Positions 2,211-64,000 of a DNA stretch of 64,000 nt are shown piece after piece. The position numbers were made by a program, and so were the translations under genes. Every line of letters starts with the position of its first letter. The stretch's first letter is position 1. The notes under the pieces were generated by a model that was not told the origin of the DNA, made no database searches, and saw only the letters and a program-made list of their open reading frames with translations. Source of the stretch: an uncultured Clostridium sp. (GTDB lineage: Bacteria > Bacillota > Clostridia > TANB77 > CAG-508); assembly GCA_946500615.1 (NCBI GenBank), contig CAMMWP010000002.1, positions 29,968-93,967 of the forward strand. The letters are read 5' to 3'.

Positions 2211-2417
2211 GATATGGCTAGAAGTATTGCAAGAGTAAGAATATATAAAATTAGAAAATCTGCTTGCAAGGCTATAAACTATATGAAAATAGTCATAGAT
2301 TAAGTGAAAAATCAGCTCTCAAGGCAATAAATGAAAATTGAATAGGACAATAAACTTCCAAGATTTATTGGTTAATATTTAAAAATGTTAATCAGTAAAA
2401 ATTGGAGGTTTTTTTGT

Positions 2418-3404
2418 ATGGAGAAAATTGATTATGAGGTAGATGACTTTATGAATTATTGTGATTATAAAGGATTATCAAAAAAGAGCATGAGAAGTTA
2501 TGAGCAAACATTAAGGTTATTTATACGATATTTAAAAGATGAGTGTAATATCACAAACACAGGAGATATAAAAGAACAAACGATAAAAGAATATATAAGC
2601 AGTATAAAGGAAAGAGGAAAATACACAGTAGTTGCAAATGACAATTCAAAAAAATTTAATAATCCACAAAACAGACAAGATTTTGGAAAAAAAGTCAGTT
2701 TAGCAACAGTTAATAATTACACAAGAAATTTAAGAGTATATTTCAACTATATGTATGATAATAGGCTTATAAAAGTAAACCCAATGAAAAATATAAAAAC
2801 AATAAAAATACCAAGAAAAGTAGTAGGGTATATGGAAAATAAAGACTTTAATAATTTACTAAAATGCTTTGATTTATCTAAATTTCACGAATATAGGGAT
2901 TATGTAATAACACAATTAATATTTGATACTGGTATGAGATTAGGGGAAACACTTTCAATAAGAGATGAAACAGATATAAATTTCACAGATAGAACAATAT
3001 TTTTACCAGCAGAGAATACAAAAGGAAAAAAGGACAGATATGTATTTTTTTCAATAAAAATGGCAACTGAATTAAAAAGGTGGTTACAGTTTAGAGATAG
3101 ATACAAAGATAGTGAATATTGTTTTTGCACAATAAAAGGCACAAAATTAAAAGGTAGTAATTTTGAAAAGAATTTCACAAAATATGGAGAAAGAATTGGA
3201 AAAAGAGAAATACACCCACATCAATTAAGGAATAATTTTGCTAAAAGATTTTTAATGAGCGGTGGGGATATTTATACATTATCAAAAATATTAGGACATA
3301 GTTCAGTTCAAGTTACAGAACAAGCATACCTTGATTTAGATACCGAAGATTTAAGACAAATGTATCAAAAACATTCCCCACTTATGAATTTAAAAAGGAT
3401 ATAA
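2418..3404 (+). CDS. int: Tyrosine-type site-specific integrase
   Basis: RBS ggagg. C-terminal catalytic residues R..HxxR..Y (HPHQLRNNFAKRF...GHSSVQVTEQAYLD). Immediately adjacent to the att region. Confidence 0.85.
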   Translation: MEKIDYEVDDFMNYCDYKGLSKKSMRSYEQTLRLFIRYLKDECNITNTGDIKEQTIKEYISSIKERGKYTVVANDNSKKFNNPQNRQDFGKKVSLATVNNYTRNLRVYFNYMYDNRLIKVNPMKNIKTIKIPRKVVGYMENKDFNNLLKCFDLSKFHEYRDYVITQLIFDTGMRLGETLSIRDETDINFTDRTIFLPAENTKGKKDRYVFFSIKMATELKRWLQFRDRYKDSEYCFCTIKGTKLKGSNFEKNFTKYGERIGKREIHPHQLRNNFAKRFLMSGGDIYTLSKILGHSSVQVTEQAYLDLDTEDLRQMYQKHSPLMNLKRI

Positions 3405-3409
3405 AAAGA

Positions 3410-4123
3410 TTATTCTTTTGGGTATTCTTCTTTTGCCTTTTTGATTTTTTTATTTATCTCATCAAAATATACTTTGTCAACTATTGCATTTGTTGTTACA
3501 ATTTTGTTAGACAACAATGTCCTTTCCATAGTAACTTTTTCTTTTGTAATATATATTTTATCATTTTCTTTAACTTTTGAGGTAAAATATTCATGCAATA
3601 TCCTCAAAATTGGGAATTGCTTTTCATACCAACTTTCTTCCTCTTTATAATATTTTTCAAATGCTTTGCTTTCTGCTTTTTCTAACTCTTTTTGTGTATA
3701 ATTTTTTTTCTCTATAATAACTCGTGGATTTCCATCAAATGGACGATTTTTTTTTCTACTTTCTTGTTCTATTAAAAAATTTATGGTATTTAATAGGCTT
3801 TTTTTATTACTATATTTTAATTCATTTAATGCTTCTATTGCCTCATCAGTTAAACCTGTTAAATTATATATAGTAATATAATCTGGATTTGTACTAGCAA
3901 TATCTGTTTTACCCAATAAATAATTTTCTGAAACATTAAATTCTTTTGCTATCTTTTCTAAATCTTCTAGTGGGATAGGACGTTTTCCACTTTCATACAT
4001 GGCTACCGCTGACCTACTTATATTTAATATGTTATTGGCTAAGCCATCTTGTGTAATACCATTTTTTTCTCGTACCTTTTGAATTCTCTTACCTACTATA
4101 ACATAATTAATTTCTTGTGACAT
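3410..4123 (-). CDS. XRE-family HTH repressor (cI-like), divergent from the replication genes
   Basis: N-terminal HTH_3 (ITQDGLANNILNISRSAVAMYESGKRP). Divergent promoter region with a palindromic operator downstream. Confidence 0.7.
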   Translation of the reverse strand: MSQEINYVIVGKRIQKVREKNGITQDGLANNILNISRSAVAMYESGKRPIPLEDLEKIAKEFNVSENYLLGKTDIASTNPDYITIYNLTGLTDEAIEALNELKYSNKKSLLNTINFLIEQESRKKNRPFDGNPRVIIEKKNYTQKELEKAESKAFEKYYKEEESWYEKQFPILRILHEYFTSKVKENDKIYITKEKVTMERTLLSNKIVTTNAIVDKVYFDEINKKIKKAKEEYPKE

Positions 4124-4150
4124 TTTTTAAATTTTCCTCCTTTTGACACT

Positions 4151-4177
4151 TTTGTGACAAGTATTTTATTTGTCACG
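4151..4177. promoter_or_regulatory. Palindromic operator TTGTGACAA-N9-TTGTCACGA in the divergent promoter region of the island
   Basis: Perfect inverted half-sites tgtgaca/tgtcaca lie between the repressor and the rightward genes. Confidence 0.45.
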
Positions 4178-4385
4178 ATTTTATGATATTATAATCCAAA
4201 TAATCAAAAAAATCAATAAAAACATAATTAAGGGGGTGATTAATATTACAGCAGAAGAAATAAGAAAGGCTAAAAACGAATATTTTAGAACTTGGAGAAA
4301 AAACAACAGAGATAAAGTAAAAAAAGCCCAAGAAAGATACTGGGAGAAAGTAGCAAAAGAAAAACAAAAAAACTCACAAATGTAA
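4170..4385 (+). CDS. Small basic protein (possible Cro/excisionase-like; start uncertain)
   Basis: Lys/Arg-rich 50-70 aa ORF immediately rightward of the operator. Confidence 0.3.
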   Translation: MSRFYDIIIQIIKKINKNIIKGVINITAEEIRKAKNEYFRTWRKNNRDKVKKAQERYWEKVAKEKQKNSQM

Positions 4386-4471
4386 ATATCATTAGGCTAT
4401 GTCAGAAAATCAAACTGATATAAGCCTATTGTTAAGGATATAAAATAAAATAGAAAAGGAGAAATAAAAAA

Positions 4472-4810
4472 ATGAAATATATTGAGTTAAATAATGACAA
4501 AAGTCCAAAATATGGATTTCAAACAACATATAAAACTATGGAAGAATTAGAAAATGCAGGACTACTGCTAAACACAAAAGTTGTACTTGTCGATTTTGAC
4601 AATGACAATATAAATGAAGAAAAAATTATTGATTACATTAAAAAGGAATACCCAACATTAACAGTAAAAACAACAAAAGGTACACATTTTTATTATGCTA
4701 AACCTGATAATGTAAAAATCGGTTGTTATACTGATACGATTACAGTTGGAGGATTTCAAGTTGACTATAAAACAGGAACAAAAGCTTATGCTGTTGTAAA
4801 ACTTAATTGA
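4472..4810 (+). CDS. Primase-polymerase (prim-pol) N-terminal domain protein
   Basis: VLVDFDNDN acidic DxD motif and a YYAKP region typical of bifunctional primase/polymerase. Ends at a TGA that is in frame with the downstream helicase ORF. Confidence 0.5.
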   Translation: MKYIELNNDKSPKYGFQTTYKTMEELENAGLLLNTKVVLVDFDNDNINEEKIIDYIKKEYPTLTVKTTKGTHFYYAKPDNVKIGCYTDTITVGGFQVDYKTGTKAYAVVKLN

Positions 4811-4834
4811 ATAGAAAGGGAAACAAATCAACCG

Positions 4835-6310
4835 TTGTCATTTGATAACTTACCAGAATTACCGCCTATACTATATCCATTAAAAGTATCAAAAGAAAAT
4901 TTAAGTGGAATGGCAGATGGTGACGGAAGAAATGACAAAATGTTTAATCATTTATGTTGGGTGCAACGAATTTATCCTGACATCGACCTAGAAGATATGG
5001 CACAAATAATAAATGAAAAATTATTTGTAGAAAGACTAGAAACAAAAGAGTTAGAAAGTATTATAAAAAGTGTAAAAAGCTATTATGATCCAAACGAATA
5101 TACAGGAGATTTAACAGATATGATAGCATTTGCACAATGGATTATTCCTAAACTAGATATAAAAATTTATAATGGTCAATTATATTTCAAAGATGATAAA
5201 ACATATATTACGGATAATCGTTTATTATTACGAAAAGTAACACATTATTCAAAACTTAAAAGAGTTCAAGATAACGAACTTATACATCAATTACTAAAAT
5301 TTTGGGAGGAAATTGATATTACAACTATGAATTTACCAGTGTATATAAGAAATGGAAGTTTAATTGATGGTGAATATAATTCAAATGATATGCAAATATT
5401 CAGTCCATTTTATTTGGACGTGGAATATAATGAAAATGCTTATGATGAACACGTTGATAAATTTCTAAATGATATTACGTGTAATCGTATAGAATTACGT
5501 CAGACATTAGAAGAAATTTTAGGTCACATATTATTGACCAGTAAATTTCCAGCTCATGTATTCTTCTTATCAGGTGGTGGGAACAATGGCAAAAGCACAT
5601 TCCTAGAAATGATAAATAATTTTGTAGGAAAGGCAGGACAAAATTTAAGTTTAGACGCATTTAATGACGACACCAGTATTGCGGCACTAAATAGTAAATT
5701 ATGTAATTGTGCTGACGAAACTGACGACATAAAAATTGATAAATGCAAACGTTTTAAAAGTTTAGCGAGTGGAAACACAATAACAGTACGACCGATATAT
5801 CAACAACCAGTCAAAATTAGAAATGTTGCAACTCTCATACTATCTGCAAATAAAATGCCAATTTTTAAAGATAAGACAGAAGGTTTTTTCAGACGTCTTA
5901 TGATAATTCCGTTTGATTTTGTAATTACAGAAAAAAACGAAAATTTAGACGAATTATTAAGCACTGATAATGCAAAAAGCTACATATTGAATTTGGCATT
6001 AAACGGTGTGCAACGAATAAAAACAAATGGGTATAAAATGACTAAAAATCAATATGTTGACGCTAAAACTGAGGAATACATAACAGATAATGACCCAATA
6101 GCGGCATTCTTAAAAAATTATCCAAATATTGATGGGGAATTAACTAGTGCTGTATATTATCAGTATGAAACATTTTGCACCACATCAGAAATTGACAGTA
6201 ATTCAATGTCATTATCGCAATTTTCCAGCAAAATGCGTGAATACGGATACAAATCTACACCGACAAAAATTAATAAACAATCGGTCCGTGTTTACAAAAA
6301 AATGCGATAA
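4835..6310 (+). CDS. D5/P4-type primase C-terminal helicase (SF3 NTPase)
   Basis: Walker A FFLSGGGNNGKSTF and Walker B ILSANK motifs. Same reading frame as 4472..4810, separated by a single TGA. The called start is TTG. Confidence 0.65.
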   Translation: MSFDNLPELPPILYPLKVSKENLSGMADGDGRNDKMFNHLCWVQRIYPDIDLEDMAQIINEKLFVERLETKELESIIKSVKSYYDPNEYTGDLTDMIAFAQWIIPKLDIKIYNGQLYFKDDKTYITDNRLLLRKVTHYSKLKRVQDNELIHQLLKFWEEIDITTMNLPVYIRNGSLIDGEYNSNDMQIFSPFYLDVEYNENAYDEHVDKFLNDITCNRIELRQTLEEILGHILLTSKFPAHVFFLSGGGNNGKSTFLEMINNFVGKAGQNLSLDAFNDDTSIAALNSKLCNCADETDDIKIDKCKRFKSLASGNTITVRPIYQQPVKIRNVATLILSANKMPIFKDKTEGFFRRLMIIPFDFVITEKNENLDELLSTDNAKSYILNLALNGVQRIKTNGYKMTKNQYVDAKTEEYITDNDPIAAFLKNYPNIDGELTSAVYYQYETFCTTSEIDSNSMSLSQFSSKMREYGYKSTPTKINKQSVRVYKKMR

Positions 6311-6870
6311 ACTGATACACTAACTGATACACTATGCCATACGTGAAACTGCTGATATTACTGAACTATACACAATTACACTATTACACATATATTTTTT
6401 TAAAATATTTTAATTTTTATTTGTATATTATGAAATATGAAAAAAATTAATAATAAAAAATATATAAAATAATGGTGTAATTGTGTAATAGTGTAACGTA
6501 CTACGCTGACAAGTTGTTGGCGATAGAACAAGTGTATAGGAAAGTGTAATCACTTCAAATTTGTGTATAAAAATGATTTTGAATTAAGTTTTATGTAATA
6601 AAAAAATGGTAACCGAAAAGCACATATTATAGTAATGGCAATATGTTGGTGTGGTTACAAATTTAAAGTTGAATATTTAAACATGGTAACCTAGTCATAT
6701 TTTAAATTTAGGTTTATTTTTTGTGAATTTATAATAAAGTTGGATACCGAAAATGCGAAACATCAGTTATATCAATTTGTTTATGAGGTAACCAAAAGGA
6801 AACCAACTAAAAAAAGTAACCCAAGATAGTTACCGTAAATCATAAAAAAGATAGCAAAGAGCTATCGTAT
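6311..6870. promoter_or_regulatory. Putative replication origin of the island: inverted GTGTAAT iteron clusters flanking an AT-rich unwinding region, plus GGTAACC repeats
   Basis: tacacaattacactattacaca at about 6367 and ggtgtaattgtgtaatagtgtaac at about 6473 in inverted orientation. Between them is an 80-bp stretch that is essentially pure A/T. GGTAACC occurs three times in 6600-6830. Located just 3' of the helicase gene. Confidence 0.5.
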
Positions 6871-6877
6871 ATTATAA

Positions 6878-7117
6878 TTAATCGGCTATATCAATATTAT
6901 CAAATAATTTATCATCGAAAAAATCTTTTAATTTCATATTTAATGCTTCACAAATATATTCTATCATATCAAGTCTAATTATTTTTCTTTTGCCTGATAA
7001 AAATTTAGATAAAGTTGAGCGAGAAATACCAGCCAATGTAGAAAGTTTTGATACATTGAGATTATTTTCATTTATTAAATTAGTAATTCTCATTCTAACT
7101 GCTTCTGATAAATCCAC
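6878..7117 (-). CDS. Small XRE-family HTH regulator
   Basis: 79 aa with LSTLAGISRSTLSKFLSGKR helix-turn-helix. Confidence 0.6.
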   Translation of the reverse strand: MDLSEAVRMRITNLINENNLNVSKLSTLAGISRSTLSKFLSGKRKIIRLDMIEYICEALNMKLKDFFDDKLFDNIDIAD

Positions 7118-7181
7118 TCTAAAATCTCCTTTTATATAGTATTCCTATTAAAGAAAATTTTAACAAAAAACATATTTACAT

Positions 7182-7439
7182 TTGTTGACAAACGCCAACA
7201 TTTTTAGTATTATTTATACAGAAAGGTGCAGTAAAATGGAACAAATAAATAAAGAATTCGATGTGCCATATTACATATTTGAAGAAATAGTTAATTATGT
7301 TGAATTAACAGCACATGGAAAAAATAAAAGTATGAAATGGGAAAATATAAAAATGCTATTAGGATTAGCAAAAGTAAATGATAGATTAACAAGTGAACAA
7401 GTTGAATTTCTTATAAATAAATATAACAGGGAATTATAG
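7182..7439 (+). CDS. Hypothetical protein
   Basis: ORF with a likely start at MEQINKEF (7237). Located downstream of a ttgaca promoter-like box. Confidence 0.35.
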   Translation: MLTNANIFSIIYTERCSKMEQINKEFDVPYYIFEEIVNYVELTAHGKNKSMKWENIKMLLGLAKVNDRLTSEQVEFLINKYNREL

Positions 7440-7472
7440 TTCAATAATTTACAAAAGAAGGGGGATGAATAA

Positions 7473-7559
7473 ATGGACGGAAAAGGAAAATGGTGGAAAG
7501 TGATTTTAGGTATAGGACTTTTAGTTGGTGGATGTATCTTAGTTGCTATAACAGCATAA
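7473..7559 (+). CDS. 28-aa hydrophobic peptide MDGKGKWWKVILGIGLLVGGCILVAITA
   Basis: Strong RBS aagggggatgaataaATG. Single TM segment. Not in the ORF track because it is under 60 aa. Confidence 0.35.
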   Translation: MDGKGKWWKVILGIGLLVGGCILVAITA

Positions 7560-7598
7560 ACATTTTAAAAATTATAGAGAGGAAAGAGGAATATTTAT

Positions 7599-8060
7599 AT
7601 GAATATGAAATTAAAAAATCAAACAGGAATAAGTTTAATGAAAGTAATAATTATCGTAGCAGTAATAATTATAGGAATAGTAATCATTAGTGCGATTACA
7701 AGTAAACCGGGTTACGAGTTAAGTGTAGAAAAAAGCGAACCAGTTGCATATACAAATTTAAGATATTCTATTGCACAGGCAGCTGCAAGTAGTGGTGGTG
7801 CTAGTACATTAAAAAGCGAATATATTGATACACTTGGAAAATTAGTAAAAAGTGCAGATAGTAATAATCAATGGTTTTCAAGTAATAGTGGTGTGTTTTA
7901 TGGTGGAACAGCAGATACTTCTGATTATCAATATACTTGGATTTCAAACGGAACTTATTGTGCAACATTTTGTATAAAACAAGAGGGCAATACATATTAT
8001 TTATGTGATTTTAAATTTTCAACTGATACTGTAAAAGGTTATACACTTTTTGTTGAGTAA
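7599..8060 (+). CDS. Hypothetical secreted or membrane-anchored protein with a pilin-like N-terminus
   Basis: N-terminus MKLKNQTGISLMKVIIIVAVIIIGIVI: short basic leader, a Gly, then a roughly 20-residue hydrophobic stretch. No E at +5, so it is not a canonical prepilin. Confidence 0.4.
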   Translation: MNMKLKNQTGISLMKVIIIVAVIIIGIVIISAITSKPGYELSVEKSEPVAYTNLRYSIAQAAASSGGASTLKSEYIDTLGKLVKSADSNNQWFSSNSGVFYGGTADTSDYQYTWISNGTYCATFCIKQEGNTYYLCDFKFSTDTVKGYTLFVE

Positions 8061-8353
8061 TATGGATAATATAACGATAAAATAATAAAAAGTAGAAGAT
8101 ATTATCAATTTATCTTCTATTTTTGTAAATTTATATAGAAAAATAATCATAAAATAAAAATAAATAGCGGTAATTAGTATTATACAGGTGTTTTTAGGGA
8201 TTTTATATTTTAGTAAAGGTAATTTCATAGGTAATATATTAAAAGTGTTTAAAATTAAAATTACGACCACGTTTTTTATAAAAGTTCATAAAAAAGAAAA
8301 ATGTAAATATGTTTTATGAATTTTTTCTGTGTTTAGCAATATCAAACTGTTTT

Positions 8354-8542
8354 TTAATATATGGTCTGCCGACTAACAGGAATAATATTGCGAATATACC
8401 AGTTTTCTGCATTATCACTCATACGAGCCATAATTGTTTTATTCCAGTGTTTTATTTGTTCCTCTGACATTGGAACTTTTGAACAAGAGGATAATTGCAC
8501 AATATTAATAATATCTATATCATCTAAATCTGGTTTGTTCAT
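8354..8542 (-). CDS. Hypothetical protein (62 aa)
   Basis: Good RBS aaaggtggtg upstream on the minus strand. Confidence 0.35.
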   Translation of the reverse strand: MNKPDLDDIDIINIVQLSSCSKVPMSEEQIKHWNKTIMARMSDNAENWYIRNIIPVSRQTIY

Positions 8543-8700
8543 TTTTTATGCACCACCTTTTTCTATTTGATAAATTACATTATAAGATAAAATTAAAAAA
8601 AAATAAACAATGTTCTTACATTTTACAAATAACTACATTAAGAAAATAATAAAAATCTCTTAAAATAAAATGTGAATATAAAGTGAAAGGGGTGGATTTT

Positions 8701-8904
8701 ATGGAACAAGATTTTTATAGTGCAATATTAAAAATACTAGAAAAGGATATAAAAATTAATACAAATGAAAATTTAATAAACACATTATTTGAAAAAAGGT
8801 CAGAAAAATTTCATGTAGCAGTTACTAAAAATGACAAATATAAAGTTCAAAAAGAAAATTTAAAAAAAGCAAATGAAAAAATATATAGAATTACAAATGT
8901 ATAA
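8701..8904 (+). CDS. Hypothetical protein
   Basis: RBS aaaggggtgg, then ATG at 8701 (MEQDFYSAIL...). Confidence 0.35.
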   Translation: MEQDFYSAILKILEKDIKINTNENLINTLFEKRSEKFHVAVTKNDKYKVQKENLKKANEKIYRITNV

Positions 8905-9186
8905 ATATGGTGTTTATGACGGTATAAAATTAATACTTGACAGCATAAACAAATAATAAACTGTGATATTAAAAAGCAAGGGTGCAATATACCTTGTTTT
9001 AATTTTGTTTATTAAATTATGAATGTAATACAATGACAATTTAATTACATTTGATAAAACACACATAAAGCCAGTAATATCAACCGTTAAATACATTTTT
9101 GCTCGAAATATATACAGACAAATGTAATACAATTCATTTAGATTTTACATTAAATGTCTTATAATGAATAAAAAAGAGGTGGTTTT

Positions 9187-9747
9187 ATGAATACAGTTCA
9201 GCCAATAAGGGATAGGGAAAAATTAGAAGATTTAAAAGAGGAATTAAAGAAAAACGGAACAAGAGATTATATGTTATTTTATACAGGTATCAATTCGGGT
9301 ATGAGAATATCAGACATTGTAAAATTAACAAAAGAAGATGTAAGAAATAGTGATAATAGTATGAAACAACATATTACAGTAATTGAAAAGAAAACAGGAA
9401 AACAAAAACGATTTCCACTATGTAACGGTTTATTAGTAGAAATGGAAAAATACACAAAAAATATGAGAGCAGGGGAATATTTATTTAAAAGTAGAAAAGG
9501 AGAAAACAAACCAATAACAACAGTACAAGCATATAGGATAATAAGTGAAGCGGCAAAAAGAATAAGTTTAGAAGAAATAGGAACACATACTATGAGAAAA
9601 ACATTTGGGTATTGGCATTATCAACAATATAAAGATGTTGCAATATTACAAGAAATATTTAACCACTCATCACCATCAGTTACATTAAGATACATTGGAA
9701 TAAATCAAGATAACATTGATAAGTCATATATGAATTTTAGTTTATAA
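9187..9747 (+). CDS. Minimal tyrosine recombinase (186 aa, catalytic domain only)
   Basis: RBS aagaggtgg. Catalytic residues R (SGMRISD), K (KKTGKQKRF), HxxR (HTMRKTF), W/H (YWHY), Y (LRYIG). A degenerate 3' copy is at 11140-11285. Confidence 0.7.
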   Translation: MNTVQPIRDREKLEDLKEELKKNGTRDYMLFYTGINSGMRISDIVKLTKEDVRNSDNSMKQHITVIEKKTGKQKRFPLCNGLLVEMEKYTKNMRAGEYLFKSRKGENKPITTVQAYRIISEAAKRISLEEIGTHTMRKTFGYWHYQQYKDVAILQEIFNHSSPSVTLRYIGINQDNIDKSYMNFSL

Positions 9748-12381: not shown

Positions 12382-13275
12382 ATGGAAAGAGTAATGACAG
12401 TAGAAGAAAGAATCAAACGAGCAGAAGAAATATATGCAAGGCGAAAAAGAAATGAAGGACTGACAGTTATTAAAGATGAAGATATCAAAAAAGAAAAATC
12501 TGAAAAAAAAGATATAAAATTATTAAAAAAAATGTTAATTCAATTAATGGTTTGTGTATGTATATATTTAGTCATTTATATCATACAAAATAACCAATAC
12601 ATATTTTCAGAAGATTTTATTCACAAAGTAAATGAAATCATATCATATGATATTGACTTAAAAAAAATTTATGAAGACACAAAAAACTATATAATGAGTA
12701 TCTTCAATAAAGAAAAAGAAGAAGAAAACAAAGAAGAAGAGCAAAATGATCAAACAAATACGACGCAAAGCAATGAAGCAAATAATGGAATTGGAGGTGC
12801 AGTAGAAGAAACAAATAAGGAACCAGAGCAAGAAAAAGAAAATGAGGTTTTATCACAAGAAGAACAAGACATTTTAAATGTAAAAAATACAGCTAACTTT
12901 ATAAGACCGGTGGAGGGAACAATTAGTTCTGTATATGGATACAGGGAAACAGCAACAGGTACAGTGCCCAAAAATCATACAGGAACAGATATAGCAGCAA
13001 CAATGGGGACAAAAATAAAATCAGCAACAGATGGGCAGGTAGTTTTAGTTTCAGAAGAAGGAGATTATGGAAAACATATAAAAATACAAATTGGAGAAGT
13101 GAGTATTATTTATGCACACTGTAATAGCTTATATGTAAAAGAGGGGGAACAAGTAACACAAGGACAAGAAATAGCAGAAGTAGGATCTACAGGAAATTCG
13201 ACAGGTCCACATTTACATTTTGAAATTAGAATATCAGAAAGAACAGTTGACCCACAAAAGATACTAGAATTATAA
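12382..13275 (+). CDS. M23-family peptidase-domain membrane protein (SpoIVFA-like)
   Basis: N-terminal TM segment, C-terminal LytM/M23 motifs HTGTDIAA and GPHLHFEI. Lies immediately upstream of the SpoIVFB homolog. Confidence 0.6.
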   Translation: MERVMTVEERIKRAEEIYARRKRNEGLTVIKDEDIKKEKSEKKDIKLLKKMLIQLMVCVCIYLVIYIIQNNQYIFSEDFIHKVNEIISYDIDLKKIYEDTKNYIMSIFNKEKEEENKEEEQNDQTNTTQSNEANNGIGGAVEETNKEPEQEKENEVLSQEEQDILNVKNTANFIRPVEGTISSVYGYRETATGTVPKNHTGTDIAATMGTKIKSATDGQVVLVSEEGDYGKHIKIQIGEVSIIYAHCNSLYVKEGEQVTQGQEIAEVGSTGNSTGPHLHFEIRISERTVDPQKILEL

Positions 13276-13285
13276 AGGAGACAAC

Positions 13286-13996
13286 ATGAAATTTAGAATC
13301 GATTTGAAAATATTTATATTTATGATATTGTTTTTGATAACAAATCAGATAAAAATATATGCAATGATCATGCTATTTGCGATTATTCATGAATTAGGAC
13401 ATTTAGTCGCAGGAATATTATTAGGAATGCATGCCGAAAAAATAGAAATAAAACCATTTGGGGTAGCAATAGATTTGAATATAAAGAGAAAAGATTATAT
13501 GGTTAAACTACGAAGAGGAAATATTTTAGAAGTAAAAAAAATCATAGTGGCTTTAGCAGGTCCTTTAACAAATGCATTTATCATTTTGATACTATCAGCA
13601 CCACCAATTTTTCGATTAAATCCAGAAGAAACCATAGTAATGATTTTTTCTAACATTACTTTAATTTTATTTAACATATTACCAATTTATCCATTAGATG
13701 GTGGCAGAATCATTAAAAGCATGATGTATATTGTAAAAGGAAAACAACGTGCAGAAAAATACACATATTATATTTCTTACATAACACTAGTAGTGATAAC
13801 AATGATAAGTAGCATAGCAATTTTGTATTTGAAAAATATTGCTATATTTTTAGTAGTTATTGTTTTATGGGGATTACAAATGAAAGAGCAAAAAATATAT
13901 AGAAATAAAATGACATTATATGAAATAATAGAAAAAGAAATGAAAAAAGATGAATGTAAAAATATAAAAATTCCTATTGAAAATAAAATAAATTAA
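13286..13996 (+). CDS. spoIVFB: Site-2 protease, M50 family (SpoIVFB-like, pro-sigma-K processing)
   Basis: HELGHLVAG zinc motif in a TM helix and a second LDGGR motif. Multi-TM protein. Confidence 0.7.
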   Translation: MKFRIDLKIFIFMILFLITNQIKIYAMIMLFAIIHELGHLVAGILLGMHAEKIEIKPFGVAIDLNIKRKDYMVKLRRGNILEVKKIIVALAGPLTNAFIILILSAPPIFRLNPEETIVMIFSNITLILFNILPIYPLDGGRIIKSMMYIVKGKQRAEKYTYYISYITLVVITMISSIAILYLKNIAIFLVVIVLWGLQMKEQKIYRNKMTLYEIIEKEMKKDECKNIKIPIENKIN

Positions 13997-19401: not shown

Positions 19402-19510
19402 ACATTGCACACAATTTTACATGCGTAAAATTAGCGCAGAACAAATTTACGGAAAGCCTAAGCAAAATTTAAAGTGTAGTTGTATTTAATGGCTTTCCGA
19501 TTTGTTCTAT
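19402..19510. repeat. Mosaic intergenic repeat family R1, copy a (modules: palindrome aattttacNNNNgtaaaatt; hairpin gaacaaatttacggaaagcc/ggctttccgatttgttc)
   Basis: The same modules recur at 23259, 25284, 28895 and 34484. Confidence 0.6.
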
Positions 19511-19511
19511 A

Positions 19512-20141
19512 TTGCAGGAGGTCTTTTTGGATTATAGAAAATTATTAAAATTTATCTTTATATGTTTTTTTATATTCGGCTGTATCTTTTTCGGACTTTT
19601 TTTTATAAATAAGACTAAAAAAATGAAATGGGGGAATAATAGAAATAGTCAAGAAATCATTGATCATATTTTAAATATTAGTTCATATGAAGCAATCATA
19701 GAAGTAGAAGTAAATAGTAATAAAAATACGAACAAATATCTAATAGAACAAACCTATGTAGCACCTAATACATCTGAGCAAGAAGTAATAGAACCAGAAA
19801 ATATTCAAGGAATCAAGATAATAAAAAATGAAAACGAATTAAAAGTGGAAAATACAAAAATGGATCTGATAAAAATATATAACCATTATGAATATATGAC
19901 AGATAACTGTTTAGATTTAAATGCTTTTATAGAAGATTATAAAGGAATCAATAAACAAAAATATGAAGAAAAAGACAATGAAATCATACTTACGATTGAA
20001 AATAAAGACGAAAAATATCATAGAACGAGAATGTTGTATATTAGTAAAGAAACAGGAAAACCTACTAAAATGGAAGTAAAAGATAATAACAAAAAAACAT
20101 TAATTTACATATTATATAAAGAAGTAGAGTTAAATCATTAA
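19512..20141 (+). CDS. Hypothetical membrane-anchored protein
   Basis: N-terminal TM ([19 protein letters not shown]). 209 aa. Confidence 0.45.
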
Positions 20142-20209
20142 ACTCTACAAAACTAATATTTAAAATAAGACACATACTTGATAATATAACAATATTGGGA
20201 GTGAAATTA

Positions 20210-20560
20210 ATGGTAATAAAAAGAGGAGATATGTTTTATGCAGATTTAAGCCCAGTAGTAGGATCTGAACAAGGAGGAATTAGACCAGTATTAATTATAC
20301 AAAATGATTTAGGAAATAAATATAGTCCAACCGTAATAGCTGCTGCTATTACATCACAAACAGGAAAAAATAAATTACCAACACATATAGAAATTGACTC
20401 AGAAAGTTGTGGATTGAAAAATAATTCAGTTGTTTTGACAGAGCAAATAAGAACAATCGATAAAAGTAGATTAAAAGAGAAAATAGGGCATATTGATGAT
20501 GAAACAATCATTAATCAAGTAAATAATGCCTTAGGAGTAAGCTTTGGGCTAGAAGAATAA
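20210..20560 (+). CDS. mazF: MazF/PemK (EndoA)-family endoribonuclease toxin
   Basis: [33 protein letters not shown]...[11 protein letters not shown] is the canonical MazF/NdoA motif set. No antitoxin ORF lies in the 68-nt gap upstream. Confidence 0.8.
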
Positions 20561-23258: not shown

Positions 23259-23425
23259 CTATGATAATATAAGTAAGAGAACAAATCGGAAAGTCTTAAC
23301 ATTTGTGCAATCTTTAACTTTTCGCTTTGGCTTTCTGTAAATTTGTTCAGCGCCAATTTTACGTATGTAAAATTGTGTGCAATCGTTAGCGCGAAGCGAG
23401 ATTTGTCCTACAATAGGAAAGGGTT
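23259..23425. repeat. Mosaic repeat R1 copy b
   Basis: gaacaaatcggaaagtc...ggctttctgtaaatttgttc hairpin, aattttacgtatgtaaaatt palindrome, tacaataggaaag..ctttcctattgta palindrome. Confidence 0.65.
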
Positions 23426-25283: not shown

Positions 25284-25445
25284 AAGAACAAATCGGAAAG
25301 CCTTAACATTTGTGCAATCTTTAACATTTCTCTTTGGCTTTCCGTAAATTTGTTCTGTGCCAATTTTACGGAAGTAAAATTGTGTACATCTGTTGCGCGA
25401 AGCGTTTCTTATACAATAGGAAAGGGGAACTTTCCTATTGTACAA
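25284..25445. repeat. Mosaic repeat R1 copy c. The track ORFs 25281-25699 inside it are spurious.
   Basis: Near-identical modules to copy b in the same orientation. Confidence 0.65.
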
Positions 25446-34306: not shown

Positions 34307-34447
34307 TATGAAATTTGTTAAAGGTATTGTTATAGGAGGATTATTAGTAACAGGAGCTGCTATGATGTATACAGAAATGGGAAAAAGTACAAAAAGAAAA
34401 ATGATGAAAAAAGGAAGAAATATGATAAAGAAAATGGGAATTGTTTA
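34307..34447 (+). CDS. 46-aa small membrane protein
   Basis: RBS agagaggatg. MKFVKGIVIGGLLVTGAAMMY... Terminator follows. Confidence 0.4.
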
Positions 34448-34448
34448 A

Positions 34449-34481
34449 AAAAAGATGCCAATACAGGCATCTTCTTTTTAT
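34449..34481 (+). terminator. Rho-independent terminator
   Basis: aagatgcc...ggcatctt plus ttttt. Confidence 0.55.
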
Positions 34482-34483
34482 TG

Positions 34484-34745
34484 AATAGGAAAAATCGAGT
34501 TTTTCCTATTCAAGAACATCGCTTCGCTCTAACAATTGCACACAAATTTTACTTACGTAAAATTTGGCGCCGAACAATGACGCGGGCTTTAAAATGTTAT
34601 AAACAGAGAAAATGTTCAAAAAAGCCCGCTATTGTTCTACAATAGGAAAGTTCCCCTTTCCTATTGTATAAAAAACGCTTCGCATAACGGATGTACACAA
34701 TTTTACATACGTAAAATTGGCACAGAACAAATTTACGCAACGCTT
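34484..34745. repeat. Mosaic repeat R1 copy e (largest: two aattttacNNNNgtaaaatt modules, two ataggaaa palindromes, one GC hairpin)
   Basis: See the R1 family. Directly abuts the prophage junction. Confidence 0.65.
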
Positions 34746-34806
34746 TAATAATTTAATTTTGGTACTAAATTAAAATTTTCGATTGTAATAACATACTGTA
34801 AATTTA

Positions 34807-35181
34807 TTAGCATTCTGGTTTTTCTGGATAATCTGGTTTTTTATCGTCATCTTTTTTACAGTCACATTTATCACATTCTATAAAGCAATCACATTTTTCG
34901 CACTTTTCACCTTTTAAGCATTTTCCTTCATGATGACATTTTGCACAAACTTTAACTTTTTTAGTATCATTTACCCAAATTTGAAGTGCATATTGTTTTC
35001 CCGGACATAAAGGACCGAAAACAAATTCTCCTTCACAATCAGTAAACGTATGCCCAATAGGTCTACGTTCCTCTTTGTCACAGTTGTAAACGATTTCAAC
35101 TAATTTAACAACAGCATCTGCAACTGGTTCTTTGAAACAATTTTTAACAACACCATAAATGACATCTCTATTGTCTTCTGT
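34807..35181 (-). pseudogene. 3' fragment (124 codons, no start codon) of a host gene for a CarboxypepD_reg-like beta-sandwich plus Cys-rich protein, interrupted by the prophage
   Basis: Frame is open from the att-proximal TAG to TAA with no ATG/GTG/TTG. Reads ...GVVKNCFKEPVADAVVKLVEI...GEFVFGPLCPGKQYALQIW...CAKCHHEGKCLKGEKCEKCDCFIECDKCDC... Confidence 0.55.
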
Positions 35182-35206
35182 CTAAGTGAAAAAGTACCAA
35201 GACAGA

Positions 35207-36598
35207 TTAAATAAAAAATATTTTCATATTATAATCCTTATCTATTACTACGTAATCAATCACAGATAGCCAAATTCTTCTTTTTTCTATTCGAGATAAC
35301 GAATTATATACTAAATTAAAATCATTGCTTAAAAACGATTTTAAAGCGTCTAGGTTTGTATCTGGAATATTAGTTTCTATTTTTTCCTGTTGTTTATATA
35401 ATTCATCTAGTTGTGCAACATATTCTTTATAATCTTTTTCATAATCTTCAATCCTTATTAAATCTCTTACATATAAATCTTTTAATTTAGACAATTTGTT
35501 TTCTACAGAAGTTATTTCTTTTGACATATCAATTTCTTTAAAGTGTTTTTCTTTGTATTCATAATCAGAAACATATTTTTTTAATTGGATATTAAATTCT
35601 TGTAAAAGTTTTTCTTCTATTTTTACTTCATTAAAATTCACATTGCAAGAGCATTTCATTGTTAAATGATGTCTTTTACAAATGTAATAATATTTAGAAC
35701 TTTCGGGATTTTTAGAATAGAATTTTCCGCCTAACCTATAACCACATTCAGCACATTTTAAAAGTCCTTGAAAAATATATCCACCAGAATTTTCGGCAGA
35801 TGGTTTTCTTGCATTTTTACTTAACAATCTTTGTGTATTTTCAAAATCTATTTTATTAATTATAGCAGGACAAAAATCTTCAATATCTCCATATCTAGTT
35901 TTCTTAATTCCTATATATAATTTATTAGTAAGTATTCTATATACCCTCATATAATTCAATTGTAGTTCTGGATATTTTAAATCTAATTTTTGAAAAGTTT
36001 GATAAGCACTAGTAGTTTCTTTATAAAACTGAAATGCATCTAAAACTACTTGTTTTTTATCTTCATCGATGACAAGTTTTTTATCTTGTTTTTTTAATCC
36101 AACTGGGATTTTTCCGCTAATCAATTCTTTACTTTCTACCTTTGTTTTAAATACACTTCTAATTCTTTCAGAAGTTTGAGCAGACTCGTTTTCGGCGACA
36201 GAAAGCATGATGTTTATATGCAATCTACCACTAGCTGTAGAACTATCATATTTTTCAAAAATAGTTTGCCAAAATACACCGTGTTCATCTAAAACATCTA
36301 ATACTTTATAATAGTTTCTAACACCACGAGAAAGACGATCTAGTTTAGTTATAAGTATTCTGTTTATCTTGTTTTGCTCAACATCTTTTAAAAGTCTTTG
36401 TAAAGCAGGTCTTTTTAAGTTAGTAGCAGAAAAACCGTCATCTTCATAAATTCCATAAATGTGAAAACCATTCTTTAAAGCATATTTAGTTAATTCTTCT
36501 CTTTGCGTTCTTAAACTATCTCCATTAATGGCTTGCTCTTCTGTACTAACTCTAACATATAAAGCTACTTCTTCAGTAACATTTTTAACATTTTCCAT
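35207..36598 (-). CDS. Large serine recombinase (phage integrase)
   Basis: N-terminal resolvase domain ALYVRVSTEEQ (catalytic Ser), recombinase domain, Zn-ribbon CxxC...CxxC, coiled-coil C-terminus. 463 aa. Confidence 0.85.
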   Translation of the reverse strand: MENVKNVTEEVALYVRVSTEEQAINGDSLRTQREELTKYALKNGFHIYGIYEDDGFSATNLKRPALQRLLKDVEQNKINRILITKLDRLSRGVRNYYKVLDVLDEHGVFWQTIFEKYDSSTASGRLHINIMLSVAENESAQTSERIRSVFKTKVESKELISGKIPVGLKKQDKKLVIDEDKKQVVLDAFQFYKETTSAYQTFQKLDLKYPELQLNYMRVYRILTNKLYIGIKKTRYGDIEDFCPAIINKIDFENTQRLLSKNARKPSAENSGGYIFQGLLKCAECGYRLGGKFYSKNPESSKYYYICKRHHLTMKCSCNVNFNEVKIEEKLLQEFNIQLKKYVSDYEYKEKHFKEIDMSKEITSVENKLSKLKDLYVRDLIRIEDYEKDYKEYVAQLDELYKQQEKIETNIPDTNLDALKSFLSNDFNLVYNSLSRIEKRRIWLSVIDYVVIDKDYNMKIFFI

Positions 36599-37236
36599 TA
36601 TTCAAAAGCTCCTTTTATTTTTGCTTCTTTAACTCTACCAATTATTTTAATAGGAATACTTTTCATATCCTCAAAAGTGAATTTTTTAATAGGATAATAT
36701 GGATTCATAGCATGTAATTCTATTCCTTCATTCGTCTTGATTACTTTTTTTACTGTTGCTTCTTCTCCGTTAATAAGAATAACAGCAGTTTGCCCACTTT
36801 CAACATCATCTTGGTCATGTACTATAACTAAGTCTCCATCACTAAGAAGAGGGAGCATACTATCTCCAGTTACTTTTAATGCAAAATACTCATTTATGTT
36901 TTTTTCATAATCTTTTATAGTATCTCTATCAGTTATATATCCAATTACATTTTCTTCTGCTAACCAATTATATCCAGCTTTTACTGTTCCTAAAATTGGT
37001 ATACTTTTATTAGAATTTGAATTGCTTTCTACTAAATCAGATTTTTGTATTCCAAAATAGTTAGCCAATATTTGTATCTTATCTATACGAGGATATATGT
37101 TGCCGTTATACCAATCTGTTAATGTAGAATAAGGTATCTCTAAATCTCTAGCAACATCGTTCCTATCTTTATTGTTAAGTCTCATATATCTTCTTAAATT
37201 TCTTGAAAAAATTTCTTTATTTCCTAAATCGCTCAT
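36598..37236 (-). CDS. cI-like repressor with an S24 LexA-type autopeptidase domain
   Basis: N-terminal HTH and C-terminal GDSMLP (Ser) ... VKKVI (Lys) dyad. Confidence 0.8.
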   Translation of the reverse strand: MSDLGNKEIFSRNLRRYMRLNNKDRNDVARDLEIPYSTLTDWYNGNIYPRIDKIQILANYFGIQKSDLVESNSNSNKSIPILGTVKAGYNWLAEENVIGYITDRDTIKDYEKNINEYFALKVTGDSMLPLLSDGDLVIVHDQDDVESGQTAVILINGEEATVKKVIKTNEGIELHAMNPYYPIKKFTFEDMKSIPIKIIGRVKEAKIKGAFE

Positions 37237-37387: not shown

Positions 37388-37585
37388 ATGCAATTAACAT
37401 TAAAAGCTATAAGAGTTAATAAAGGGTGGACACAGGAAGAAGCTTCAAAAGAAATAGGAGTAAGTGTAGATACACTAAGGAATTACGAAAATGGAAAAAG
37501 TTATCCAGATATACCAACTTTAAAAAAAATAGAAGAGGTTTATGAAACCCCATACAATAATATAAATTTTTTTCCAGAAAAATAA
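37388..37585 (+). CDS. Cro-like XRE HTH protein
   Basis: 65 aa. WTQEEASKEIGVSVDTLRNYENGK. Confidence 0.75.
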   Translation: MQLTLKAIRVNKGWTQEEASKEIGVSVDTLRNYENGKSYPDIPTLKKIEEVYETPYNNINFFPEK

Positions 37586-61677: not shown

Positions 61678-64000
61678 ATGTCAGGCTCAATTAAAGGAAT
61701 TATAGTTGAAATCGGGCGGAGATACCTCTGGATTGCAGAAATCCTTAAGTAAAGTAAATTCTGCAACTTCTAGTCTATCTAAAGAATTAAGAGGAATAAA
61801 TACATTACTAAAGCTTGACCCTAAAAATACTGAATTATTAGCACAAAAACAAACCGTTTTAAGTCAAAATATTCAAGAAACCACCAACAAATTAAATCAA
61901 TTAAAGCAAGTACAAAAGCTAGCAGATGATACGATAAAAAACGGTGGAGAAATTTCTCAAGAAAACTATAGAAATCTTCAAAGAGAAATAATAAATACAG
62001 AAAACAAGTTAAAACAATTAAAAGCAGAAGCATCTGATTGGACTTCTATTAGCAAATCACTTGACTCATTGAGTAAAAAAACATCAAAAATAGGACAAGG
62101 ATTTACAAATATAGGAGGAGCATTAACAACTGGAATAACACTACCAATTCTTGGCTTAACTACTGCTGCAGTAAGTGTTGGAAATAGTTTCGAAAAACAG
62201 ATGAGTAGAGTACAAGCTATTGCAGGAGCTACAAAAGATGAATTAAAACAATTAACAGATCAAGCTATGGATTTAGGAGCTGAAACATCTTTTAGTGCTA
62301 CACAGGTTGCAGAAGGAATGGAAAATTTAGCAAGTGCTGGCTTCACAACTCAAGAAATCATGGAAGCTATGCCAGGTTTGTTAGATTTAGCAGCATCTAG
62401 TGGAGCAGATTTAGCAACATCTTCTGAGATTGCAGCAAGTGCAATAAGAGGTTTCGGATTAGAAGCCAGCAGTAGTGCTCATATAGCTGATGTGTTTGCA
62501 GAGGCAGCAGCAAGAACAAATGCACAGACAGAAGATATGGGAGAGGCTATGAAATATATAGCACCAATCGCAAATACAATGGGACTAAAAATAGAAGAGA
62601 TCGCAGCTGCGATAGGAATTATGTCTGACGCTGGAATAAAAGGAAGTCAAGCAGGTACATCCTTAAGAGGAGCTTTAGTAAGATTAACCAAGCCAACAGA
62701 CAAAATGCTTGGAGTGATGGAAGATTTAGGAATAAGCTTCTATGATAATGAAGGTAAAATGAAATCTCTTACTGAGATGATTTCTATGTTACAAGAGGCA
62801 ACAAAAGGACTAACAGACGAACAAAAACAAAACGCGCTTACAATTTTGTTTGGAACAGAATCTTTATCTGGTATGATGTCTCTAATTAACAGAGGTTCAG
62901 GAGATTTAGCCGACATGACTAAATCTTTTGAAGATTGTGACGGAGCAGCACAGAATATGGCAGATACAATGCTAGACAACACAGCTGGATCTATCGAGGA
63001 AATGACAGGAGCGCTAGAAAGCTTAGCAATTAAGGTTCAACAAATGTTAGCACCTTATATAACGGAAGCAGCTAATAAGATTCAAGAATTAATTAATAAA
63101 TTTATGGAGTTGCCAGAAAGTACGCAGAAAACAATTCTAGCTATAGCTGGAATAGCGGCAATAGTAGGACCTGTTTTACTTATTTTAGGTCGAATAATAA
63201 CATCTATAAGTGCAATAAGTGGAGTATTAAGTAGTTTTACTGCATGGATAGCAAGTACAAGTGCAGGATTAACTGGTTTTTCTAAAGTACTAACGGCTTT
63301 AACAGGACCTGTTGGAATAGTTATAGGAGTAATTACAGCTTTAGTTGGAGTATTTACATATTTATATAATACTAATGAGCAATTCAGATTAAAAGCACAA
63401 GAAACATGGAATAATCTAGTAGCTTTATTTCAAAACACTGTAATGCCTGTTATTCAAAATATAGAAAATCTAGTTATGAGCGTAATCAACACAGTAATAT
63501 CAATTTTACAACAATTATGGAGTTTTATAGAACCATTCTTTACTGAAATGTTTACATGGCTAATGGATTTTTGGAATAATACAGGTTCAAAAATATTTGA
63601 AAATGTAATGGGATTTGTAAATGGATTAATAGATTTAGTATCTATGATTTGGAACAATGTCATATCTCCAATAATAAATTTCTTAGTTCAAAATTTACAG
63701 CCAGCTTTTAGTACGGTATTTGGTATTATTTCTGGGATAGTTCAAGGATTTGGAAATACAATAGGAGCGATAATAGAATCTGTAACAGGAATCTTAAAAG
63801 GAATAATAGATTTTATTACAGGTGTATTTAGTGGAAATTGGGAAAAAGCATGGAATGGAGTAAAAGATATATTTTCTAATATTGTTTCTAGCCTTGGAAA
63901 TATAATAAAAGCACCAATTAACTTTATAATAGATACTATAAATGGACTAATCAGGGGATTAAATAATGTTAAAGTGCCAGATTGGGTACCAGGTATTGGA
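61678..64000 (+). CDS. Tail tape measure protein. It is frameshifted near 61717 and the gene continues past the window end.
   Basis: ATG at 61678 gives MSGSIKGIIVEIG, then a stop. The +1 frame continues GDTSGLQKSLSKVN... through the TMP core (..AGATKDELKQLTDQAMDLGAETSFSATQVAEGMENLASAGF..) to nt 64000. Removing the c at 61717 yields the canonical IEIGGDT N-terminus. Confidence 0.7.

Follow-up and report, generated by a model that had tools for sequence, protein, structure and literature searches.

A temperate prophage has very probably split a conserved cysteine-rich gene of an uncultured Clostridium sp. by means of a large serine integrase, and the two parts of the gene would be rejoined upon excision, as judged by comparison with intact and interrupted loci in related genomes. 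The window, i.e., the whole stretch of 64,000 nucleotides that was analysed, contains the 3' part of the gene (34807-35181, minus strand) and, adjoining it, the left ~29 kb of the prophage (35182-64000). The type of event, a phage with a serine integrase splitting a gene, is already known; the target gene and the host clade are new.

The gene fragment consists of 124 codons and a stop codon and covers the intact protein from approximately residue 32/33 to the C-terminus. As described in a first-pass annotation of this DNA, it represents a minus-strand frame of 124 amino acids without a start codon: its translation contains no methionine, and in-frame ATG, GTG, and TTG codons are absent, as are a promoter and a ribosome-binding site (RBS). 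The cysteine-rich tail described in the same annotation is also present, the C-terminal third of the fragment containing CxxC and CxC motifs (CAKCHHEGKC...CEKCDCFIECDKCDC...PEC). A TAG codon that had been placed seven codons from the beginning of the frame actually lies directly 5' of the first codon (35182-35184, minus strand). This TAG is derived from the phage and closes the frame, so that no fusion open reading frame (ORF) exists in this lysogen and the 3' fragment cannot be translated. When aligned with intact homologues of 136-216 amino acids, the fragment shows 76-88% identity and retains all columns that are invariant in the family. The window copy is devoid only of the first ~31 residues, M..ILD(I/V)DGVISGGKQFDLDITLP, and begins with T-EDNRDVIYG versus P-EDNRDVIYG in the intact homologues. 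The N-terminal half of the gene had been predicted to lie beyond the far end of the prophage; homology supports this location, but the missing part comprises ~31 of 155-200 codons and not half of the gene.

The fragment has 1490 database relatives (>1490 clusters), the intact forms of which contain no Pfam domain, and the gene is present at 583 or more loci in species-representative genomes, all of which belong to uncultured gut Clostridia from human, mouse, rabbit, and chicken, such as Clostridium sp. CAG:343. The first-pass annotation had suggested a search for the intact gene in related strains, and it was found in related genomes in identical synteny (metagenome contigs L001-L004). The neighbourhood shared by the window and the intact loci comprises the genes for DapF, an aminotransferase, an HD protein, RuvA, MgsA/RarA, two TauE proteins, and a 46-amino-acid ORF, followed by the gene itself; in the related contigs, genes for a 295-amino-acid protein and then for a 2729-amino-acid GH94 enzyme are located beyond it. 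At the DNA level, the window and the intact loci are colinear up to the CCA/ACA codon and unrelated past it. The protein database contained no intact allele from the same species, the best match sharing 94% identity across 81% of the query. The same-species contigs encoding an identical TauE protein all end at ~34318-34535, at a repeat region or immediately ahead of it and ~300-750 nt short of the junction. An IS91-family element (Y2 transposase) is inserted between the HD-protein and aminotransferase genes of one of the intact loci (L003, 10695-12095), which is otherwise syntenic.

The gene next to the fragment (35207-36598, minus strand) encodes a large serine recombinase (phage integrase) of 463 amino acids. 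Pfam assigns to it the domains Resolvase (PF00239, 8.3e-34, residues 11-154), Recombinase (PF07508, 8.5e-08), and Zn_ribbon_recom (PF13408, 3.4e-10), i.e., the protein combines an N-terminal resolvase catalytic domain with a C-terminal Recombinase domain and a zinc ribbon, and the N-terminal motif YVRVSTEEQ contains the presumed serine nucleophile. In the PDB, it matches the catalytic domain of the TP901-1 integrase (8e-25), and its closest cultured relatives are the phiCD27/CD1801 integrases of C. difficile (48.6% identity). The distance of 26 bp between the recombinase gene and the fragment had been given correctly, but the end facing the fragment is the stop codon, i.e., the 3' end of the recombinase gene, and not its start.

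The start of the integrase gene is overlapped by one base by a gene for a CI/LexA-like repressor (36598-37236, minus strand) composed of a helix-turn-helix (HTH) domain and an S24 autopeptidase (Pfam: Peptidase_S24, 3.6e-25; HTH_26/HTH_3), which forms a lysogeny operon with int. Divergent from it, an early lytic operon starts with a Cro-like HTH regulator (37388-37585, plus strand; PHROG transcriptional regulator/repressor families, ~1e-12); the plus strand also carries genes for a DnaD-like loader, a DnaB-like helicase, and a late transcriptional regulator (phrog_36). Further plus-strand genes, assigned like the rest of the prophage by PHROGs and by Pfam-annotated gene tables of contigs encoding the same proteins, specify terminase, portal, protease, capsid, and tail proteins, and the tape measure gene runs off the end of the window. 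By its gene content, the prophage is a complete-looking temperate element of the siphovirus type, the modules of which appear intact in the visible part. As a homologous prophage with two ends measures 39.25 kb, a total of ~39 kb is expected and attR should be located roughly 10-11 kb past position 64000. A directionality factor was not recognised among the visible prophage ORFs by means of PHROGs. When the far end of the prophage was sought, the contigs that carry the last complete gene of the window either stopped before the lysis module or were mosaic relatives, none of them carrying the 5' stub motif, and the contigs with an identical integrase were all lysogen junctions.

In at least nine other lysogens, phages with related integrases occupy precisely the codon that is interrupted in the window. 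Among the 80 best species-representative genomes, five are interrupted there (L036, L037, L045, L046, and L082); the same insertion occurs in the four contigs from which protein P0066 stems (L005-L008) and in two IMG/VR prophages (L091 and L093). The lysogens among the species representatives carry different phage arms at this codon, and the C-terminal fragments of all nine other lysogens are open reading frames, so that the fragment is intact in ten lysogens including the window copy. Since only some species are hit (five of the 80 representatives), and by different phages, the site is, on the strength of these comparisons, an active attB hot spot for a phage family.

The other forms of the attachment site were found in homologous elements. 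Two viral contigs (L089 and L105) contain attP of the free phage, and neither of them carries the cysteine-rich gene. A pattern search of metagenome contigs gave five attR junctions (L100-L104), in which promoter, RBS, ATG, and 31 codons are followed by CCAGATG.TAA...AAAAAGTAC and phage DNA; the phage arm of L100 is the right arm of the L089 attP, and the host DNA of L101 and L103 is syntenic with the stretch upstream of the intact gene, on the GH94 side of the locus. A single IMG/VR contig of 40,173 bp contains both junctions in the same orientation, 39.25 kb apart. When its halves were joined in silico at CCAGA, a colinear ORF of 155 amino acids resulted that is 60% identical to P0048 (E=2e-56), together with a symmetric attP. 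The attP sites, the attR junctions, and this contig show, by homology and for related prophages rather than for the copy in the window, that excision would rebuild the ORF, as had been proposed. Together with the synteny and the shared codon, they also support the initial claim that a prophage with a serine recombinase resides inside a host gene.

A different origin of the fragment is highly improbable. It might be a remnant or moron carried by the phage, a pseudogene decaying beside a defective element, or the result of a chimeric assembly, and the position of the 5' part outside the window and the failure to retrieve an intact allele of the same species would fit such an origin. The host synteny on the 3' side of the fragment is conserved, however, and all family-invariant residues are kept; moreover, attR junctions with the 5' part exist, the free attP forms in L089 and L105 are devoid of such a gene, and the junction of this lysogen recurs unchanged in L206 and L207, contigs with an identical integrase from two independent metagenome assemblies, which rules out an assembly artefact. 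Synteny, gene-free attP forms, and independent assemblies thus exclude both a phage-borne remnant and a chimera.

In the attL of the window, 7 nt separate the integrase stop codon from the phage half-site arm TGGTACTTTTTCACTT (35184-35199, minus strand), which is conserved at attL junctions and makes up one half of the inverted repeat of attP; the sequence TAG-A-CAGA and the host codons come next. The CAGA block (35177-35180, minus strand) is common to attB and attP: across the lysogens, attL junctions read A/T/C-CAGA-AGA and attR junctions C-CAGA-TG, and the identity between attB and attP is limited to CAGA, reaching TTGCCAGA in one pair. The palindromic attP of L105 has the dinucleotide GA of this block exactly at its centre, and so does the attP rebuilt from L093 and L155. 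Because CAGA alone is shared and GA occupies the centre of the attP symmetry, strand exchange is predicted to occur at GA, 35178-35177 on the minus strand (35177-35178 in plus-strand coordinates). The attB site lies inside the coding sequence ...ACTTTACCAGAAGATAA..., a region which is near-invariant at the protein level in more than 70 species.

The true attP repeat has the form TGGTACTTTTT.../...AAAAAGTACCA. As the site in the window is a hybrid, only a single arm is present there, and its partner, predicted to be ...AAAAAGTACCA, would be located at the far junction. An arm of the TGGTACTTTTT type is found at the same distance (6-8 nt) from the integrase stop codon in all ten attL junctions and in the two free attP sites, with the variants GGTAC in L005/L008, TAGTAC in L082, and TGGTATATTTTTTT in L091/L093. 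The attP of L105, TGGTACTTTTTAATAT-AGACAGATGTTA-ATATTAAAAAGTACCA, comprises perfect 16-bp inverted repeats flanking 12 bp that are centred on GA, and that of L089, whose integrase is 79% identical, reads TGGTACTTTTTAAC-TTTACCAGATGATAAT-GTTAAAAAGTACT. A short attP composed of inverted half-sites around a central dinucleotide and sharing minimal identity with attB is thus present in the relatives L105 and L089 and in the site rebuilt from L093 and L155. Neither the exact arm of the window type nor a degenerate DNA pattern for GGKQFDLDITL gave a match in viral contigs.

The first-pass annotation had recognised an imperfect inverted repeat at 35177-35206 as the symmetry of the attachment site. The repeat exists, with perfect 7-bp arms (TCTGTCT/AGACAGA) and a spacer of 16 nt, but its role as recombinase site was rejected: the window is AT-rich (28% GC) and contains 224 perfect 7-bp repeats spaced by 10-20 nt, i.e., about one per 286 nt, so that this repeat is not unusual, and its phage-side arm TCTGTCT is not conserved in the other junctions.

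Several observations concern the reading frames across the junctions. In L005 (4289-4699, encoding protein P0066), L036, L045, and L082, the phage arm contains no in-frame stop codon, a sense codon being found at the position of the TAG; gene callers therefore predict chimeric ORFs in which ~20 phage codons (MKTTTCRYFLFSLWWYFFLL) precede the host fragment and overlap the 3' end of the integrase gene. Chimeric ORFs such as P0066 are probably annotation artefacts which add false N-termini to the family. At the attR junctions of L100-L104 and L155, the 31-codon stub continues in frame for 12-15 phage codons (e.g., LPDVNRKKYY..., LPDDNIKKYHLYYNN*). At the centre of attP, CCAGATGATAAT imitates the host sequence CCAGAAGATAAC, with P-D-D-N encoded in place of P-E-D-N.

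These data give the following picture. An integrase of the TP901-1/phiCD27 type inserted the phage at codon 32 of the cysteine-rich gene, between ...DITLP and EDNRD..., and integration parted the last 124 codons from the promoter, a hairpin in the 5'-untranslated region, the RBS, the ATG, and the first ~31 codons. With the fragment cut off from these expression signals, the gene should be off in the lysogen. The missing 5' part would lie ~39 kb to the right, beyond the window, and the far junction is expected to consist of the stub ATG-...GGKQFDLDITLP followed by CCAGATG...AAAAAGTACCA, ~39 kb right of 35178. Upon induction, for which the S24 repressor suggests an SOS route, the integrase and a putative recombination directionality factor would rejoin the gene precisely. 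The phages may favour this target because its 5' coding sequence is near-invariant in hundreds of species and because the gene is presumably dispensable for vegetative growth.

No family name could be assigned to the split gene, there being neither a Pfam nor an NCBIfam family nor a source name on the cluster members. A beta-sandwich of the CarboxypepD_reg type had been proposed for the fragment; the match to PF13620 falls below the threshold (15.1 bits versus a gathering cut-off of 32.3, E=0.03) and is not found with the full-length homologue P0006, but a beta-sandwich (residues 24-100) does appear in an AlphaFold model, albeit one of modest quality (pLDDT 60), followed by a disordered tail rich in cysteine, lysine, and aspartate. 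According to this model, the first beta-strand (residues 24-30) belongs to the part missing from the window. A sequence search of the PDB with the cysteine-rich protein yielded only NOMO (E=0.12), and the fold search gave only generic beta-sandwich/CBM matches, all with E >1e-3 and none in the PDB below 1e-3. The variable C-terminal tail with its KCDKKCDEKYDEKCD... repeats is, we presume, similar in its biased composition to CotC/CotU of B. subtilis and CdeC/CdeM of C. difficile, whereas we know of no counterpart of the conserved N-terminal beta-sandwich in these proteins. The likeness to lysine-, aspartate-, tyrosine-, and cysteine-rich spore coat proteins thus comprises the composition of the tail and a conserved promoter of the mother-cell type upstream of the gene.

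In the upstream regions of intact orthologues, a CATAnnATA box is invariant (78 of 78), and the motif AC-N16/17-CATAnnnTA is present in 51 of 75 distinct regions versus 0.025 expected per region, a conservation that is partly due to shared ancestry. In C. difficile, the elements recognised by sigma-K are AC at -35 and CATATAAT at -10; the type of the -10 box is common to sigma-E and sigma-K, and the -35 AC sets sigma-K apart (PMC3789822). The assignment of the cysteine-rich gene to sigma-K is a consensus match with a -10 box shared with sigma-E. The host encodes Spo0A (1344-2210; 381.6 bits versus a cut-off of 200). As the mother-cell-type promoter is conserved and Spo0A is present, a late role in sporulation is plausible, and we lean toward the view that the gene codes for a spore-envelope protein made late in the mother cell from a sigma-K-type promoter. 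The promoter and Spo0A thereby lend indirect support to the suggestion of the first-pass annotation that the protein may belong to the spore coat.

Two further observations were made on the promoter region. At the 5' end of the predicted mRNA of the intact gene, ~10-35 nt past the -10 box (L001-L104; e.g., L001 5940-5975), there is a stem-loop conserved by covariation; four of its five pairs show compensatory changes (e.g., CAAC/GTTG, GTAAC/GTTAC, CAGAT/ATCTG, CAAAC/GTTTG), it may serve as a 5' mRNA stabiliser or as a binding site for a regulator, and in lysogens it is retained at attR together with the 5' stub. On the plus strand of the window, a single other strict AC-N16/17-CATAnnnTA motif (20089-20116), again followed by a hairpin, is located upstream of a MazF/PemK toxin gene (20195-20560; PF02452, 5.8e-35) and downstream of a weakly GerS-like lipoprotein gene (19512-20141), which is a caution regarding the specificity of the promoter motif.

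The arrangement resembles that of elements which split sporulation genes. Prophage SPbeta of B. subtilis, which possesses the integrase SprA and the directionality factor SprB, resides in spsM, and its excision rebuilds this spore-envelope-linked gene (PMC4191935, PMC5499854). The present case is alike in that the gene is split by a prophage which looks active and encodes a large serine integrase, and in that precise excision would rebuild the ORF. The integrases are only distantly related, as a comparison with YokA, a solved SPbeta resolvase homologue (PDB 9dxh), gave E=7.6e-6; the phage described here is much smaller (~39 kb) than SPbeta (~134 kb), no SprB-like factor was recognised in its visible part, and spsM codes for an enzyme of polysaccharide synthesis, whereas the target here encodes an uncharacterised cysteine-rich protein with a predicted beta-sandwich. 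The elements skin in sigK of B. subtilis and C. difficile, gin in gerE, and yin in yabG likewise carry serine recombinases, interrupt sporulation genes, and are reported to restore them by excision (PMC5025042, PMC5595907, PMC10747680). They share with the present case the interruption of a host coding sequence by an element with a serine recombinase; in contrast to the complete-looking phage found here, which has counterparts from different phages in five of the 80 species representatives, they are either defective or reduced to a minimum and have mostly become fixed in their lineages. With phages of the TP901-1/phiCD27 type, the present element has in common the Resolvase, Recombinase, and zinc ribbon domains of the integrase and a short attP with inverted repeats around a central dinucleotide; it differs in its att specificity, attB being located in a coding sequence, and in the host clade of uncultured gut Clostridia.

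Developmental regulation of excision defines this group of elements. In analogy to SPbeta in spsM, excision might be specific for the mother cell, with the directionality factor or the integrase under control of sigma-E or sigma-K, such that the gene is rebuilt in time for its expression by sigma-K and the forespore stays lysogenic. We consider such a switch unlikely. The mother-cell-type promoter of the target, the presence of Spo0A in the host, and the intact C-terminal ORFs in ten of ten lysogens are in line with it, and so are the integrase class and the gene-splitting layout, which correspond to those of skin and SPbeta (PMC4191935, PMC5499854, PMC5025042). A recent integration, however, would equally leave the fragments intact; the insertion is sporadic, with differing phage arms in five of the 80 species representatives, as is the case for ordinary active phages, and not fixed like skin; and neither a directionality factor nor a strict sigma-K-type promoter was found in the visible part of the prophage (35182-64000, 29 of ~39 kb).

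The insertion probably represents plain inactivation of the gene at a conserved, dispensable site, whereby the gene would stay off throughout the life of the lysogen, sporulation included, and be restored only in rare induced cells that lyse. The S24-type repressor, which implies induction of the SOS type, the completeness of the lytic modules, the near-invariance of the attB region, the sporadic occurrence among species, and the lack of a sporulation promoter in the visible prophage all argue for this. Plain inactivation leaves unexplained, however, why the integrase family became locked onto a gene with a mother-cell-type promoter, since the known precedents with that combination are developmental switches, and ~10 kb of the prophage lie beyond the window. 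A more far-reaching proposal, which we regard as quite unlikely, is that the whole phage family acts as a reversible switch on a sigma-K-driven spore-surface gene: excision in the mother cell would allow lysogens to form normal spores, the phage would persist in the germ line, and the promoter and 5' hairpin of the attR stub, which face the right end of the prophage, could supply the sporulation signal, either by sense transcription of a directionality factor or by antisense control of genes at the right end.

Whichever of these applies, a new, recurrent integration target is added to the few genes of endospore formers that are known to be split by prophages with serine integrases. Were excision coupled to sporulation, active lysogeny of the SPbeta type would extend to the gut microbiome; to our knowledge, nothing is known about the control of sporulation in uncultured gut Clostridia. 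The comparison also defines attB, attP, attL, attR, and a predicted crossover dinucleotide for related integrases (60-79% identity), which may be of practical use in integrase toolkits, and it marks an abundant, uncharacterised protein family as a candidate for a late component of the spore envelope.

Some features of the host part of the window should be mentioned. Downstream of the split gene (34450-34800), two tandem units of ~155 nt each contain a hairpin of 17-19 bp (34478-34516 and 34632-34674) followed by the palindrome AATTTTACWTACGTAAAATT, which also occurs in three other host intergenic regions (19413-19432, 23355-23374, and 25362-25381), giving eight strand matches in the window versus 0.01 expected. 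The palindrome has no Rfam match, and Rfam gave nothing meaningful around the junction. Because the same-species contigs all break near 34318-34535, the repeat at 34450-34800 is suggested to be a dispersed genomic repeat or a shared operator. At 12382-13996, just upstream of minD and rodA, a gene for an M23 peptidase-like protein is directly followed by one for an M50 site-2 protease. The two have generic Pfam/NCBIfam matches only, and their arrangement presumably resembles that of spoIVFA-spoIVFB, whose products process pro-sigma-K in B. subtilis; a true likeness would support the presence of a sigma-K pathway in this host. Directly downstream of spo0A, a second mobile element (2385-9747) comprises genes for a tyrosine recombinase (2385-3404), an RstR-like repressor (3410-4123, minus strand), a P4-family primase (4835-6310), and a partial second tyrosine recombinase (9187-9747).
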